Positions 6,324-12,848 of a stretch of 64,000 nucleotides of DNA are shown in pieces. The position numbers and the translations under genes are program-made. Under the pieces are notes generated by a model. That model did not search any database, was not told the origin of the DNA, and saw nothing but the letters and a program-made list of their open reading frames with translations. This DNA is from Candidatus Giovannonibacteria bacterium. Lineage in GTDB: Bacteria; Patescibacteriota; Minisyncoccia; JACPKW01; UBA11713. Positions within the stretch are counted from its first letter, which is position 1, and each line of letters starts with the position of its first letter. The stretch lies in contig JACPKW010000005.1 of the NCBI GenBank assembly GCA_016186825.1, forward strand, positions 2,025-66,024, written 5' to 3'.

Positions 6324-6439
6324 TCTGTATCGGCGGCTGCCTACTTTCCCCTTACGAGTATCATCGGCAGTACAGCGTTTTACGACTCTGTTCGGAATGG
6401 GAAGAGGTAGTTCCACTGCCTCAAGCCACCGAAACAGAA
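6324..6439 (-). rRNA. rrf: 5S rRNA
   Basis: Minus strand reads TTCGGTGGC...CCCATTCCGAACAGAGTCGTAAAACGCTGTACTGCCGATGATACTCGTAAGGGGAAAGTAGGCAGCCGCCGA. This matches the 5S core (CCCAUNCCGAAC, GCCGAUGGUAC, AGUAGG) and terminal helix I. Confidence 0.75.
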
Positions 6440-6686
6440 AATCCAAATAAAATAATTTTCGCCAGTTCGGAGAATTTATATCTCCGAAAAAAAATAAAAG
6501 AACGACAATATTTCGATCCGATTTTCCTCCGCTCCGCCAGTTAGCGGATTGCGGAACGAATCACTCAGATCGGAGCGAGCTCGACTTATTAGTACTTCTC
6601 GGCTGAACGCCTTACGGCGCTTACACCTGAAGCCTATCAACGTGGTAATCTTCCACGAGTCTTAACGATTCCTAATCTTGGGGCAT

Positions 6687-6717
<31 letters not shown>

Positions 6718-6797
6718 ACTTAGCGACATAGCTACCCAGCGATGCTCTTGGCAGAACAGCTGGTAGACCAGAGGTCACCTCCTCCCGGTCCTCTCGT

Positions 6798-7584
6798 CAT
6801 GTTTAAACCCCTATTTCTAGGAGCATAGACTATATCTTCATCCCGCTGCATGCATGCAGAGGGAGTCGGCATCTTACCTATAGAAACCTGTCTTTTTATT
6901 TAAAAGACCTTCCAGTTTATATAAGTCTGTCGCGCATGGCGACAAGTCGTTACGGGGTCAAGCCTAAAACTTTTGATAATTCTTCGGATGTTTTCTTCGC
7001 TCGCGACTGATAATTTTCAGTCTGGATCCGAAGTAAGATATCCCGCAATTTATATTTTTGATCATTCTTTAATAAATCAAAATTTTTTCCTTGCAAGATG
7101 CGAGCTGCTTTTAAAATCTCAATTGTCTGAATTCTTTTAAACTTGATGAAAGGCAGCAATGCTTTCAGAACACGCTCGGAACCTCTATATCCATTTATGC
7201 GCAACTCTGTCATTCCATCATTGCGATTGGATAAATACCCTATTCCCAATCTTTTCTGAACCCAGAAAAGCGGTTTCGCGTGCCTCGTATCTTGATAAAA
7301 ACAAATGGTGAACATAAAGCGCCACCCTCTTTTACTATCATTACGATGTTTAATCTGAAGCATAATACTACCATCACCATCAAGAAATCCAGCAATGTAA
7401 GCAAGCTCTTCAGTTTTAAGCCGACTTCCCACGGTATTGTCTTAAAAATTTTCTGGTCCTCAAGTATATCGTACCACATCTAGGACCTTTAGAATGTGGA
7501 TATGCAACCAGAAAATTTATGAAGATTCCACCGTTATAAGCCGAATTTTCAATCCCGATTACTCGGGAAAGTAGCAATTTTTTA
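6798..7584 (-). mobile_element. group I-type intron in 23S rRNA (sarcin-ricin loop region) carrying a LAGLIDADG homing endonuclease gene
   Basis: The exon sequence ...GGGGGGTTCTCCCTAGT is interrupted, then resumes at ACGAGAGGACCGGGAGG. The insert ends in G and follows a U, as group I introns do. It contains ORF 6950-7432. Confidence 0.65.
6950..7432 (-). CDS. LAGLIDADG homing endonuclease (single-motif, I-CreI-like)
   Basis: Motif LAYIAGFLDGDGSI near the N-terminus. 160 aa. Sits inside the 23S insertion in the sense orientation. Confidence 0.8.
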   Translation of the reverse strand: MGSRLKTEELAYIAGFLDGDGSIMLQIKHRNDSKRGWRFMFTICFYQDTRHAKPLFWVQKRLGIGYLSNRNDGMTELRINGYRGSERVLKALLPFIKFKRIQTIEILKAARILQGKNFDLLKNDQKYKLRDILLRIQTENYQSRAKKTSEELSKVLGLTP

Positions 7585-7707
7585 CTAGGGAGAACCCCCC
7601 TCAAGAATCAACGCCTGCAGTAGATAGGAGACCAACCTGTCTCACGACGGTCTGAACCCAGCTCACGTACCTCTTTAATTGGCGAACAGCCAAACCCTTG
7701 GGAGCTC

Positions 7708-8449
7708 ATTTGTCGTTTTCCCGCGTTACTGCGGGTATCAGACTATGCCATCACCATATTTCAATTGTCGCCAATTGAAACTTAGGTGCGAACCGTATTA
7801 TAGATTTTTTAATCTATCTCGCGATGCTCCAAAAAGCATCGCTCAGTCGTTAGAGGAGATATGTTCTTAGATCATTGCCGCAAAATTTTTCCGTCGATTT
7901 TTGGATCGGACGTTAAATTTCGACAATGTATCTGCCAATCGTGCTACGCGCCTCAGATCTCGAAATTCCCTGATGGGAGTTTCTATAATCTTCTGCGCAA
8001 AATCTATTTGCTGTTGTTTCATTCTGGAATAAGGACGAACATAAGAAAGAACTCGCAAGATTTCTTTTTGATCTCTTGTAATCCAATCACATGTTGTCCG
8101 ATTCGTTCGAATTTTTCCACAACCGAGAATCTCGGTCATGCACAAAAGATCTTTTCTGTGCTTTTGCGTTACTTTCAATTCAATACGAACTCGAAAACGA
8201 AACTTTTTCTCATTATGAGGTTCGATGATCGCCATAATGGCGCCATCGCCGTCAATGAGACCAGCAATATATGCACAATCGACTTCAGAACATCTCTTTC
8301 CTACGGCGTTAACCTTCATGAGTATATTATACCTGGGACCTGCAAACTTTGCATATCCCAAGCGTATATTTATGAATAGGCCTTCACCGTTTTGGGCTCG
8401 TTTAATTACTCTGACGTTTCCATCAGAGAGAGAAGTTATGTTTTCTCCA
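7708..8449 (-). mobile_element. second group I-type intron in 23S rRNA (about E. coli position 2500) with a LAGLIDADG homing endonuclease gene
   Basis: The exon CGATGTCGGCTCATCTCATCCTGGGG is interrupted and resumes near ...GAGCTCCCAAGGGTTTGGCTGTTCGCC. The insert contains ORF 7867-8361. Confidence 0.65.
7867..8361 (-). CDS. LAGLIDADG homing endonuclease
   Basis: Motif CAYIAGLIDGDGAIM. 164 aa. Sense orientation inside the 23S intron. Confidence 0.8.
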   Translation of the reverse strand: MGYAKFAGPRYNILMKVNAVGKRCSEVDCAYIAGLIDGDGAIMAIIEPHNEKKFRFRVRIELKVTQKHRKDLLCMTEILGCGKIRTNRTTCDWITRDQKEILRVLSYVRPYSRMKQQQIDFAQKIIETPIREFRDLRRVARLADTLSKFNVRSKNRRKNFAAMI

Positions 8450-10020
8450 CCCCCAGGATGAGATGAGCCGACATCGAGGTGCCGAACTCCGCCGTCGCTG
8501 TGGACGCTCGGGCGGAACTAGCCTGTTATCCCCGGAGTAGCTTTTATCCGTTAATCTTTGGCGCCATCTACTGGCCACCGTCGGTTCACTAGATTCTGCT
8601 TTCGCACCTGCTCGACCTGTCCGTCTCGCAGTTAAGCCGGCTTATCCTCTTACAGGTCCAGCGCGATTTCCATCCGCGCTAAGCCGACCTTAATAAACTC
8701 CTCCGTTACTTTTTAGGAGGATTGCGCCCCACACAAACTGCCCACCAGACACTGTTCCCATCCAGTTTCCCCGCGCTTTTTTCAATTTTCTAAAAAAAGC
8801 GCGGGGTTCTGGATAGGTTAGGACATAAGTCGCCGAAGATGGGTATTTCACTGTTGGCTCCGTCCCGCCCAAAAGCGGGACATCAAAGCCTCCCCACTAT
8901 GCTACGCATCGAAAACTTAAACCCAATATCAAGTTGCAGTAAAGCTTCCGGGGTCTTTTCGTCTAACTGCAGGTAGCCGGCATCTTCACCGGCATCGCAT
9001 TTTCACCGGGCTGCTCCCCGAGACAGTCCCCCAGTCGTTACGCCTTTCGTGCGCGTCGGAACTTACCCGACAAGGAATTGCGCTACCTTAGGACCATTAT
9101 AGTTATGGCCGACATTGACGAGGGCTTCGGACGCTCAGCTGCTCCGCTTACGCTACACAACTTCGCGAATTTACAATTTACAATTTCTAATTTCCAAACA
9201 ATTTTTGAAAATTGAAAATTAATAATTGAAAATTCGGTTGCGAAGCAAAAGCGAAGCAACCGGCTTCGTTAACCTTCTCGCATTGGTCAGGCGTCACCCC
9301 CTATACATCCTCTTACGAGTTCGCAGGGAGCTGTGTTTTTGATAAACAGTCGCCAGGGGTACTTTCGTTGCAGCCGACGCTCCGCATTAGAATTTCCAAT
9401 TTCTAATTCTTCAATTTTCATTGAGTTTCCAATGAATTAATTTCCAAACGTTTGGAAATTGAAAATTGTTACTTGAAAATTCCGATGCGAAGCATCGGCA
9501 GGTCTTATCCCTAAGTTACGACCGCTTTTTTGCCGAGTTCCTTGGGGAGCACTCACTCGTTCGCCTTGGGCTACTCGCCCCACCCACCTGTGTCGGTTTA
9601 CGGTACGGTTTCCTTCAATTAACCTAGAAGTTTTTCTTGGAAGTACGTTTGCGAAGATTTCTCAATCCGAAGAAAAAGATTTTTAAATCGCCTGGAGATG
9701 CCTTGCGGCGCCGGGCGGATTTGCCTGCCCGTCTCCTCGCGACTCAAACACGAATCCAATAACGTGCCTTCGCTACGGCACTCCGTCACTCCATCGAATG
9801 AAGGAAGTCACGGAATATTAACCGTGTGTCCATCACCTGCGGCTTTCGCCATCGGCTTAGGACCGACTAACCCTTGGCTGATAATCATTGCCAAGGAAAC
9901 CTTGGGTTTACGGCGCAGCGGTATTTCACCGCTGTTGTGGTTACTTGTGCCAACATTCTCACTTCTCTGGCGTCCATCCCGGCTCACGCCGTGGACTTCA
10001 CTCGCCAAAGAACGCTCTCC

Positions 10021-10621
10021 TACCAATTAGTGCTTGAATTTTGGAGGGGAATCTCACGACTCCCCTTACATCCTTTCGTTATTTTTTCTTTTTATTGTCT
10101 TTTACGCTGGATTGCGTAGTGAATGAACAGCGCAAGCTTATCAGCACATTCGTATATAACTCTATCGATTTCCCATTCATCCTTGGACGACAATTTTTTA
10201 ATGCCCCGGTTTTTCAACTCTTCGCGAACATCCATGGTCAGCTTGGTATGAATTCCAAGCCGCATTCCATCCAGATTTGGTTTTTCCAACACCATGACCG
10301 TTCTCCTTTCGTTATTTTTTCTTTCCGTTTCTCTTCTCTTGATGCAAGACCAACGTCGCAGTTCGCAAGAATTCACGAGTTAAGCATGGTCTATTCCACC
10401 CATCATCCATCCATGCCCATGTGATTATCTCTGTATGTGCGGAGTGAACGAACCATCTGCGCTTGTACTTTAGCGCGATGCCTTTCAGCATACATCGATC
10501 TTCTTTTGAAAGCCGTCATCATTCGAATATTCCGAGCGATGCGTAATCACGAGAACTTTCGATTCCATTTTCACCTCCAATGAACTAAAAATTTTTTTTC
10601 CAAAATTCAAGCACTAATTCC
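10021..10621 (-). other. intervening sequence (IVS) in 23S helix 45, closed by a perfect 20-bp inverted repeat
   Basis: aattagtgcttgaattttgg (10021-10040) pairs with ccaaaattcaagcactaatt (10602-10621). The 561-nt insert replaces the helix-45 tetraloop between GTACCGAAGGTGAGG and GGTAGGAGAGCGTTC, which is E. coli 23S ~1164-1185, the classic RNase III-processed IVS site. Confidence 0.6.
10092..10376 (-). CDS. IVS-encoded small basic protein (94 aa), candidate 23S-IVS protein
   Basis: Sense-strand ORF entirely inside the helix-45 IVS: MNSCELRRWSCIKRRETERKNNERRTVMVLEK... Function unknown. Confidence 0.35.
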   Translation of the reverse strand: MNSCELRRWSCIKRRETERKNNERRTVMVLEKPNLDGMRLGIHTKLTMDVREELKNRGIKKLSSKDEWEIDRVIYECADKLALFIHYAIQRKRQ

Positions 10622-11496
10622 TCACCTTCGGTACTCTATTTAACCCCGATCATCTGCGGCGCAAGGTCTCTTAGCGAGTGAGCTGTTACGCACTCTTTAA
10701 AGGATGGCTGCTTCTAAGCCAACCTCCTCGATGTTTCAGAAACCTCACCACCTCGCTTGTACTTAATAGAGATTTTGGGACCTTAGATTGAGATTTGGGC
10801 TGTTTCCCTTTCGACCGACGGAGCTTAGCCCCCGTAGTCTGACTACCTGAGTAAACCCGCTGGCATTCGGAGTTTGATTGGTCGTCCGAGATTTCTCCCT
10901 GTGACGACCATCCAGTGCTCTACCTCCAGCGGTTATCTCAAGCGCTAGCCCTAAAGCTATTTCGGAGAGAACCAGCTATTACCAAGTTCGATTAGCTTTT
11001 CACTCCTACCCCCAACTCATCCGATGGCGTTGTACGACCAAACGGTTCGGGCCTCCAGCCGTCTTTCGACGACCTTCGCCCTGGCCAGGGGTAGCTCACC
11101 TGGCTTCGGGTCTATTATTTAATGCATTTAAATCTTAGTTCCGTCCCAATTTTCGAACGGAACTAAAATCTAGTTCGCCCTTTCAGACTCGGTTTCCCTG
11201 CGCGTACGGGCACAAAAGCCCTTACACAAGCAATAAACAATAACTCGTTGGCTCATTCTTCAATAGGCACACCATCACCGCGCACAGCGCGGAAGCACCA
11301 AATAACAAGCACCAAGCTCCAAATAATTTTAAATAACCAATTTTCAATTCTCAAAAAAAATTTGAAACTTGAATTTTGGAATTTGGAATTTATTTGTAAT
11401 TTGGATTTTGGAATTTGGAATTTCCGTGCTATGCACGGCTCTGATTCCTTGTAAGCATATGGTTTCAGGTACTATTTCACCGCCCTCACCGGGCTG

Positions 11497-11534
<38 letters not shown>

Positions 11535-12848
11535 ACTTCGAAAGTATTTAGCCTTAGGAGTGTAGTTCTCCTTGCTTCCTCCGAACCATTCTTTGTTCGA
11601 AGTACTCAAGAAAATCACCGCCACTATATATAAATATACAGGTGCAGGACCCCGCTTTTCAGCAGGGTATCAAGGAGCATAAATCTGTTTTCGCCTACAG
11701 GGCTATTACCTTCTTTGGCGAAGCTTTCCAGCTTTCTTCAGCTAACGAGATTTATTTAATCGGCTCCTTTCCGGCGCTATCCCGCAAACCTCCTGAAATT
11801 CAGAAAGAATGCGGGATGCTCCAGAACGATACAATCTTTCAACCCCAAGCACGTAATCCTTGCGGACTATGTGCTTGGTTTGGGCTTCTCCCTTTTCGCT
11901 CGCCGCTACTAAGGGAATGTTCACATCTCGCTAACGCTCGCTTCAATTATCAATATGCAATTTCTAATTTTCAAAAAATAAATTAATTGAAAATTATTGA
12001 AAATTGCAAAATTGGAAATTAAAAATTTCGAACGTTAGTGAGATATGGTTGTTTTCTTTTCCTCCGGGTACTGAGATGTTTCACTTCCCCGGGTGCGCTC
12101 CGCGCTCTGCACGGAATTTTCAATTTTCAGTTCTCAATTCACAATAAATTTTCAGTGAATTAATTTTCAAACGTTCGAAAATAGGAAATTGATAATTGAA
12201 AATTCCGTGCAAAGCACGGTCTCCGTGGTTTGCACGGAGGGGTTTCCCCATTCGGACATCGTCGGATCAAAGGTTGCTCAACACCTCCCCGACGCTTATC
12301 GCAGTTACGCCACGTCCTTCATCGCCTTTCGAAACCTAGGCATCCACCATACGCCCTTATTTGCCCGCTCCGATCTGAAAGATCCGCCAGAACTTACTTG
12401 GCGAAATCAGATCGAAATATTGTGTCCCGATTCGCAAGTGCTCTTTTTGCGAATCGAGAATCTCCCGATTTTGTTTACAAAATCGGGACTCTTTTTTATT
12501 TAGTTATTTTGCGATTGTTGCCCCATCAGAATGTTGTGTTCCGATGGAGCTACCTGTTTCAATTTTTAAGCTGCATTCACCTACCCGCTTAATTTTGCAC
12601 CTGCAAATTTTGGCGGGTTAGCTACCGGCGTTTGGATTCGCTATTTCACTCATCCAAGCGTCGAGAGCCAATTTCTAACTTTTTATCTAACTTTTTTAAA
12701 CCTCGCCGGGCCTGCCTGCCGGCTGCAGGGACGGGTTCATTAATTAAAAAATCCGCCGTGAAGCGGATTACACATCAAGACTAGGCGTGATTTCATCCGC
12801 TTCTAAAGTTAAGTTTTAATAAAACAAACACCATAAATTGTGCTTTTC

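Follow-up and report, generated by a model that had tools for sequence, protein, structure and literature searches.

The stretch of DNA analysed here (the window) comprises 64,000 nucleotides of Candidatus Giovannonibacteria contig JACPKW010000005.1 and carries a 23S rRNA gene whose sarcin–ricin loop (SRL) is interrupted by a 786-nt insert. We consider it about 90% probable that this insert is a mobile self-splicing group I intron, which is removed by the two-step guanosine-initiated pathway, restores the loop and spreads by homing into intron-less SRL DNA. Its sequence and that of its homologs identify the insert as a group I intron of IA-type layout (short P2, short P5 and P7.1/P7.2-like hairpins). 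Few universally conserved rRNA sequences are as long as the SRL, without which the GTPase of elongation factors is not activated. An intron splitting the SRL must be removed precisely for a working ribosome to be formed. The elements on which the argument rests at the level of the gene are the following.

6798..7583, minus strand: the complete group I intron of 786 nt, lying directly behind E. coli U2656 (site L2656); from the covariance model, the sequence and homologous loci with the same boundaries.
7584..7625, minus strand: 5' exon, comprising the helix 95 5' strand and the 5' part of the SRL, with the end ...CUCCCUAGU and U2656 at 7584; from the large-subunit (LSU) covariance-model alignment and the sequence.
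6760..6797, minus strand: 3' exon, comprising ACGAGAGGACC (A2657 onward) and the helix 95 3' strand GGGAG; from the LSU alignment and the sequence, with positions +1 to +11 invariant in 73 loci.
6950..7432, minus strand: putative homing endonuclease open reading frame (ORF), 160 amino acids, GTG start, with a single LAGLIDADG motif of the I-CreI type, filling the P6 loop; from Pfam, the PDB and an AlphaFold2 (AF2) model with Foldseek.

The 23S rRNA gene (bacterial, Rfam) lies on the minus strand at about 12356..6568, and the sequence quoted in the first-pass annotation is the reverse complement of the window. Both flanks of the insert were aligned by the bacterial LSU covariance model (E = 1.5e-73), with ...UGAGGGGGGUUCUCCCUAGU on one side, GGGAGGAGGUGACCUCUGG... 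on the other side and a 793-nt unaligned block in the loop of helix 95. The model placed the real CGAGAGGACC wrongly within this unaligned block, and the junction was therefore set by hand and from 79 homologous loci. The 5' exon terminates in ...GAGGGGGGUUCUCCCUAGU (CCCUAGU), with the final U at 7584, and the 3' exon opens with ACGAGAGGACCGGGAGG at 6797; the insert between them, 7583..6798, starts with AAAAAAUUGCUAC and ends with ...UUUAAACAUG. When the exons are joined, UAGU|ACGAGAGGACC closed by CUCCC/GGGAG forms a normal helix 95 and SRL. We take the universal loop AGUACGAGAGGA to be E. coli 2654–2665 according to the established numbering (A2660 as the ricin target, the sarcin cut after G2661), in agreement with the 26-position offset in the Rfam model, and the insert is therefore confirmed to sit between U2656 and A2657 of the SRL. 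This is the position that the first-pass annotation had read by eye; the covariance-model alignment and the homologous loci bear it out, and the junction stays in the SRL with no shift to 2593 or 2610. As for the coordinates given there (6798–7584), 6798 is indeed the last base of the intron, whereas 7584 is the exon U and thus one base too far.

Since the group I model of Rfam, RF00028, gave a low score, an anchored alignment and a structure of our own were built. The covariation set consists of 66 distinct homologous introns from which the interior of the ORF was removed, with the alignment anchored on conserved blocks. The elements of the structure, listed from the 5' splice site onward, are given below together with the support for each; L2593 relatives are introns at another 23S rRNA site, to which we return.

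7572..7587, minus strand: P1, exon UAGU and intron AA with UUGCUA, containing the internal guide sequence GCUA; U·G in 66 of 66 and G-C in 66 of 66.
7553..7568, minus strand: P2 hairpin UCCCGA-GUAA-UCGGGA (GNRA loop); 5 of 6 pairs compensatory, 99% canonical.
7540..7544, minus strand: P3 5' strand UCGGC, a long-range pairing with 6870..6866; 4 of 5 pairs compensatory, also found by RNAalifold.
7529..7534, minus strand: P4 5' strand ACGGUG; invariant, pairing with UACCGU at 7436..7431 in 66 of 66.
7439..7526, minus strand: P5, AUCUU/AAGAC with A-rich J4/5 and J5/4, enclosing a P5a/P5b extension; U-A/C-G/G·U covariation, the first pair being A·C alternating with G·U.
7431..7436, minus strand: P4 3' strand UACCGU, whose final GU opens the GUG start codon; from the alignment and the ORF.
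7421..7430, minus strand: P6 5' strand GGG-AA-GUCGG (ORF codons 1–4); pairs with 6961..6954, with one C-G to U-A pair.
6954..6961, minus strand: P6 3' strand UUGAC-CCC (final ORF codons); from the alignment.
6945..6953, minus strand: J6/7 and P7 5' strand, GUA-A(C)GACU, including the stop codon UAA; invariant in the 66 sequences and in the L2593 relatives, pairing potential 100%.
6929..6943, minus strand: P7.1-like hairpin GUCGC-CAUGC-GCGAC; 4 of 4 counted pairs compensatory.
6876..6926, minus strand: P7.2-like extended hairpin; 5 of 5 counted pairs compensatory, length differing among homologs.
6866..6870, minus strand: P3 3' strand GCCGA; from covariation and RNAalifold.
6842..6863, minus strand: P8 hairpin CCCUCUGCA-UGCA-UGCAGCGGG; two basal pairs 97% canonical, upper part variable.
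6827..6841, minus strand: J8/7 (AUGAAGAUAU) and P7 3' strand AGUCU; GAAGAUAUAGUCU nearly invariant.
6799..6826, minus strand: P9.0, AUG 6826..6824 with CAU 6801..6799, enclosing P9; 3 of 3 pairs compensatory.
6823..6808, minus strand: P9 hairpin CUCCUA-GAAA-UAGGGG (GNRA loop); 5 of 6 pairs compensatory.
6798, minus strand: terminal guanosine (omega-G) at the 3' splice site; a G precedes ACGAGAGGACC in the window and in all 79 of 79 loci.

Across the 61 modelled pairs, 95.2% of the cells of the alignment are canonical, in comparison with 33–48% when the partners were slid by 1–3 columns and 83.7 ± 0.3% in column shuffles, and compensatory double changes are found in 30 pairs as against 7–21 in the slid controls. 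Most of the covariation is located in P2, P3, P7.1, P7.2, P9.0 and P9, and RNAalifold, applied to the same alignment, independently returned P1, P2, P3, P4, part of P5 and P9. The 5' splice site is marked by the U(7584)·G(7575) wobble in P1, the neighbouring pairs of which are kept in 65–66 of the 66 homologs, and at the other end the three bases that directly precede the terminal G are paired in P9.0. The proposed guanosine site in P7 would consist of A-U, a bulged C, G(6948)-C(6828), A-U, C-G and U-A, and is invariant in all 66 sequences, hence its lack of covariation; the J8/7 sequence GAAGAUAU is likewise invariant. The P7.1- and P7.2-like hairpins lie between the P7 5' strand and P3', and the P6 hairpin also occurs in the L2593 relatives, there without an ORF. 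The folding check called for in the first-pass annotation thus returned a group I core (P1–P9, P9.0 and J8/7) with covariation over the homologs, and the remark that the insert follows a U and ends in G, as group I introns do, holds throughout the set. The P5a/P5b extension (7518..7446) holds an invariant CUUGAGGACC; its long forms carry a hairpin loop, GGUCC, complementary to GGACC, and its short forms are without the hairpin. These two segments may form a tertiary or an alternative pairing.

Two earlier assignments were rejected. In a first fold, P6 was AAGUCG/CGACUU and P7 was AGACU (6928..6924), which left unexplained hairpins in J6/7 and J7/3; it was ruled out by the ORF-less L2593 relatives, which keep GGG...CCC and CCCCGUAACGACU, by a C-G to U-A double change that backs GUC/GAC, and by the invariant GACU at 6948..6945, which pairs fully with AGUC of the J8/7–P7 block. 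With P6 and P7 reassigned, the two leftover hairpins become P7.1 and P7.2. A P5 formed by UCUUCA/UGAGGA was dropped since its variable positions do not track their invariant partner, whereas AUCUU/AAGAC covaries.

The ORF carries the LAGLIDADG motif LAYIAGFLDGDGSI at residues 10–23, with GFLDGDGS including D20, and matches Pfam LAGLIDADG_1 (PF00961) with E = 4e-9 and 37.7 bits against a cutoff of 23.1. Sequence matches in the PDB are I-CvuI, I-CreI and I-MsoI (E = 1e-13 to 1e-8), and the identity to I-CreI is 31% over 108 residues. Asp20, Gln47 and Lys98/99 align with I-CreI (Q47 and K99 with I-CreI Q47 and K98) and are invariant in 24 family members. The AF2 model (pLDDT 87.9) matches the alpha-beta-beta-alpha-beta-beta-alpha fold of one I-CreI subunit, and Foldseek aligned it to I-CreI chains with E of about 3e-13 and TM scores of 0.80–0.84 over about 154 columns. 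The I-CreI-like single-motif protein named in the first-pass annotation is thus recovered by Pfam, by the PDB sequence matches and by Foldseek. With a single motif and an I-CreI-like model, the protein is of the type of enzyme that works as a homodimer, and it probably does so here; around the insertion site, palindromic symmetry holds at five of the seven innermost positions, which fits a homodimeric enzyme but proves nothing.

The ORF and the ribozyme share sequence at both ends of the reading frame. The codons GUG GGA AGU CGG form the end of P4 and the P6 5' strand, the codons UUG ACC CCG form the P6 3' strand, and the stop codon UAA spans J6/7 and the first P7 pair; all of these are invariant. 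With the start codon in P4/P6 and the stop codon in J6/7–P7, ribozyme folding and translation of the ORF should exclude each other, and we infer that folding of the ribozyme would hide the start codon, so that translation and splicing would compete.

Following the standard group I pathway, the guide sequence GCUA in the pre-rRNA would pair with exon UAGU to form P1, and an external guanosine held at the P7 G-C pair would attack after U2656. P9.0 would then bring the terminal G (6798) to the same site, the freed U2656 would attack at G|A2657 and the exons would be ligated, restoring UAGUACGAGAGGACC, so that the loop needed by the elongation factors would form only after splicing. At the DNA level, a homodimer of the 160-residue protein would cut intron-less SRL DNA (YTAGT|ACGAGAGGACC), and repair from an intron-bearing copy would complete homing; the putative target duplex of 30–40 bp in the intron-less SRL is TTCTCCCTAGTACGAGAGGACCGGGAG. 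Such a target would occur in nearly every bacterium, which helps to explain the wide spread of the element across lineages of the candidate phyla radiation (CPR). As the SRL can form only once the intron is gone, and as splicing starts with free guanosine or GTP, it is conceivable, but in our judgement quite improbable, that splicing at the SRL is used as a control point and is not merely tolerated; large-subunit activation in these small host-dependent bacteria would then be coupled to the supply of guanosine nucleotides or to a late assembly step.

When one genome per species was scanned for relatives of the endonuclease, more than 599 matching stretches came up, at least 521 of them confirmed, from which 80 loci were returned and fetched. 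In 79 of these the ORF is followed by G|ACGAGAGGACC within about 115–350 nt, and the remaining locus ends before the 3' junction. Every readable 5' side has the form YUAGU|A...UGCUAC, and in some loci the P1 loop is enlarged by a further stem with a GNRA cap. In the exons, positions −4 to +11 never vary, whereas positions −5 to −11 do; the nearest 23S exon (90%) is that of another Ca. Giovannonibacteria locus (L047). Labels are CPR (mostly Patescibacteria or CPR metagenome-assembled genomes) or generic in 78 of the 80 loci, the exceptions being L002, labelled WS2, and L031, labelled Gammaproteobacteria. A protein search with the ORF gave 2940 clusters at E ≤ 1e-5, about 120 of which have the length of the ORF product and are 57–79% identical to it; those among them that carry a name come from CPR bacteria. 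Many matches are labelled Candidatus Saccharibacteria (for example L003, L014, L045, L046 and L049 in the locus table); according to a 2024 survey, there are almost no introns in the rRNA genes of Saccharibacteria (PMC11270868). The Saccharibacteria, WS2 and Gammaproteobacteria labels may stem from automated binning.

Several points weigh against a self-splicing mobile group I intron. RF00028 does match the 3' core here (E = 3.7e-5 and 29.1 bits in a 1.26-kb search) and in eight homologous loci (25.7–37.1 bits), which counts in favour of such an intron, but all these scores lie below the gathering score of 50 bits. RF00028 aligns well only at J8/7–P7–P9 and the 480-nt ORF in P6 is penalized; the shortfall is a failure of model coverage and no sign of a missing feature. 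P4, P7 and most of P6 are invariant, and covariation therefore speaks neither for nor against them, while the anchoring of the alignment on conserved blocks favours conserved helices. P10 has at best 1–2 bp and the exon pairing in P1 only 4 bp. Finally, there is no Shine–Dalgarno-like sequence before the GTG start, which makes expression of the endonuclease uncertain.

The short P1 and P10 also speak for a ribozyme that has decayed or depends on protein and would splice only with the help of a host factor or of the LAGLIDADG protein that it encodes, acting as a maturase. Maturase function is known for some LAGLIDADG proteins, and the ORF codons that form P6, with the start and stop codons in P4 and J6/7–P7, point to close co-evolution of protein and RNA. 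The core helices and joining regions are nevertheless intact and conserved over very divergent hosts, and since the ORF-less L2593 relatives retain the same core, dependence on protein is possible but not needed; we regard it as unlikely.

The position of the junction could also be one base further 3', at A2657|C2658, with an intron reading AAAAAU ... CAUGA. One A is shared between the exon and the insert and is not placeable by sequence alone; furthermore, the covariance-model alignment left UAGUA in the exon, and the 2024 survey labels the site as position 2657 (PMC11270868). This placement would detach the splice sites from the U(7584)·G(7575) pair found in 66 of 66 homologs and from the G before A, to which P9.0 abuts (all of the 79 loci have a G in front of ACGAGAGG). 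Group I introns have a U·G at the 5' splice site and a terminal G; the invariant P1 U·G and the invariant G before A favour U2656|A2657, and we hold the shifted junction to be very unlikely.

Many bacteria have intervening sequences at helices 25 and 45, and the insert could be of this kind: RNase III or a comparable enzyme would excise it, the ends would stay unjoined and the 23S rRNA would be fragmented. CPR 23S genes do hold short non-intron insertions that are thought to be of the RNase III type, according to the 2024 survey (PMC11270868), and the Rfam group I score is under the gathering threshold. The insert, however, lies in helix 95 and not in helix 25 or 45, its ends pair into P1 and P9.0 and not with each other, so that no long terminal stem is present, and it has a conserved, covarying group I core with the U·G 5' splice site, P9.0 and terminal G. 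A single break of the SRL backbone (by alpha-sarcin, after G2661) inactivates ribosomes, and an unligated break four bases from G2661 is therefore unlikely to be tolerated, which makes this explanation highly improbable.

An assembly artefact or an rRNA pseudogene, with the intron absent from the functional copy, deserves thought in a genome of uncultured type, as metagenome contigs often break or misjoin at rRNA genes, but we give it almost no credence, because the exons fit the LSU model from one end of the gene to the other, 5S rRNA and tRNA-Met come next, the same arrangement recurs in 79 independently assembled genomes and CPR genomes usually have one 23S copy, as the 2024 survey states (PMC11270868).

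The first-pass annotation called an insertion inside the SRL itself unusual, which is right in so far as the searchable literature contains no report of the site from outside CPR; among CPR genomes the site is common (the confirmed stretches above) and has been catalogued. Tsurumaki, Sato, Saito & Kanai (2024, J Bacteriol) examined 348 CPR 23S genes and described 14 frequent insertion sites; in their survey, LAGLIDADG_1 proteins are mainly found at 1917, 1931, 1952, 2593, 2604 and 2657 (23IS6–8 and 23IS12–14), sites 23IS6–14 hold group I introns, those at 23IS14, among others, were previously unreported in other bacteria, and the CPR rRNA insertions are missing from transcripts (PMC11270868). 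The window element is an instance of the catalogued site 23IS14, 'position 2657', as it shares with it the gene, the position (within the one-base ambiguity), a group-I-like RNA with a LAGLIDADG_1 ORF and a CPR host. For 23IS14 the accessible parts of that paper give the position and the protein family only, without a secondary structure, mention of the SRL or a biochemical test of the site; the enzyme tested in it, I-ShaI, belongs to 23IS7 and not to 23IS14, and the text of its supplement contains no per-site counts. Our literature search found nothing that links the sarcin–ricin loop (or L2655, L2656 or L2657) to an rRNA intron. The bacterial 23S introns at L1917, L1931 and L1951 (Thermotoga, Simkania, Coxiella and Synechococcus) are likewise mobile group I introns with single-motif LAGLIDADG proteins of about 160 amino acids, are likewise located at highly conserved rRNA sites and likewise have ORF ends that reach into core helices; they differ in being IC1-like or of other subgroups and in lying in domain IV, none being in the SRL (PMC1995217). 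The existence and the frequency of the SRL site are thus already known, and what is added here is the covariation-supported structure, the exact splice sites, the ORF-in-P6 layout and the kinship with L2593 introns.

The SRL site lies 63 nt downstream of L2593, the I-CreI site, and is in domain VI, whereas L2593 is in the peptidyl-transferase region. L2593 was among the earlier bacterial sites (L1917, L1931, L1951 and L2593) treated by Haugen et al. (2007), and its introns, which have a short P2 and a P7.1/P7.2 extension, include those with I-CreI-family enzymes in Chlamydomonas (Cr.LSU/I-CreI), those of I-CvuI and I-MsoI, and cyanobacterial ones (PMC1995217). The L2593 and SRL introns have in common the short P2, the P7.1/P7.2 extension, an ORF or its remnant in P6 and a 5' exon ending in GU. 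They differ in the guide sequence (GCUAC in the SRL intron and GCGAC at L2593), and the DNA target must differ as well (YTAGT|ACGAGAGGACC versus CGTCGT|GAGACAG).

Two loci carry an ORF-less L2593 intron beside the SRL intron in the same gene (L024:994-1284, 291 nt, and L068:976-1262, 287 nt). The blocks UUGC(G/U)AC, CUAAUAACGGUGGAAUC, AUACCGUGGGAAG, CCCCGUAACGACU and GGAUGAAGAUAUAGUCU are common to these two introns and the SRL intron, the first block being UUGCGAC in the former and UUGCUAC in the latter. The L2593 introns of L024 and L068 are 58–70% identical to the L2656 cores, which are 60–67% identical to one another, and the two introns of L068 are 70% identical. From these shared core blocks, and an identity as close as that within L2656, we infer that both sites host one ribozyme lineage. 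The P6 hairpin of the L2593 intron in L068 has retained a readable 12-codon remnant, MGSRPPAGGLTP (MGSR...LTP), that closes with a stop codon, which suggests a loss of the ORF and possibly a recent transfer between the two sites. The guide sequences are one base apart and match the respective exon ends, UCGU at L2593 and UAGU at L2656. A reading more modest than that of a control point, namely that the L2593/I-CreI lineage gave rise to the SRL intron when one base of the guide changed and the endonuclease was retargeted, also fits the evidence; if so, nature would have produced an enzyme directed at a DNA sequence that is among the most conserved in cellular life. For the window itself, the practical value of these findings is annotation, and the structure model together with the L2593 link provides testable material for studies of intron site-switching and for a possible SRL-specific meganuclease. 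Most of the related genomes (for example L004, L016, L034 and L060) carry another intron, ending in ...G|CGUGAGACAG upstream of GAGACAG, three bases upstream of the classical L2593 site and with a different 3' core (…AUAGUCCAAUGCA…).

If two LAGLIDADG introns and the other insertions are discounted, the 23S gene around the SRL intron is intact. Downstream of it are a 5S rRNA gene (6433..6328) and then tRNA-Met(CAU), giving the order 23S – 5S – tRNA-Met; a 16S rRNA gene is absent from the entire 64 kb of the window, which suggests that the rRNA genes are unlinked here. The 5' two-thirds of the 23S gene (8998..12356, minus strand) is about 1.3 kb longer than the model, with extra stretches at, for example, 12097–12221, 9136–9263 and 9371–9505. 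Long hairpin-like inserts in this region give spurious matches to miRNA precursors, and a 94-residue ORF within it (10092..10376) has no Pfam match; the inserts are probably non-intron expansions or intervening sequences. The second intron of the gene, 739 nt on the minus strand at 7706..8444, interrupts the hairpin loop of helix 91 (about E. coli 2530–2535) and encodes a LAGLIDADG_1 ORF of 164 amino acids (7867..8361). Its Rfam group I score is only 22 bits, and its 5' exon ends in G (GUGGAG) and not in U, which would be atypical for a group I intron. The 3' part resembles that of the SRL intron: its stop codon is followed by CUAACGACU, and it has AUGGCAUAGUCUGA and a P9 hairpin and ends in ...AAAUG|A.

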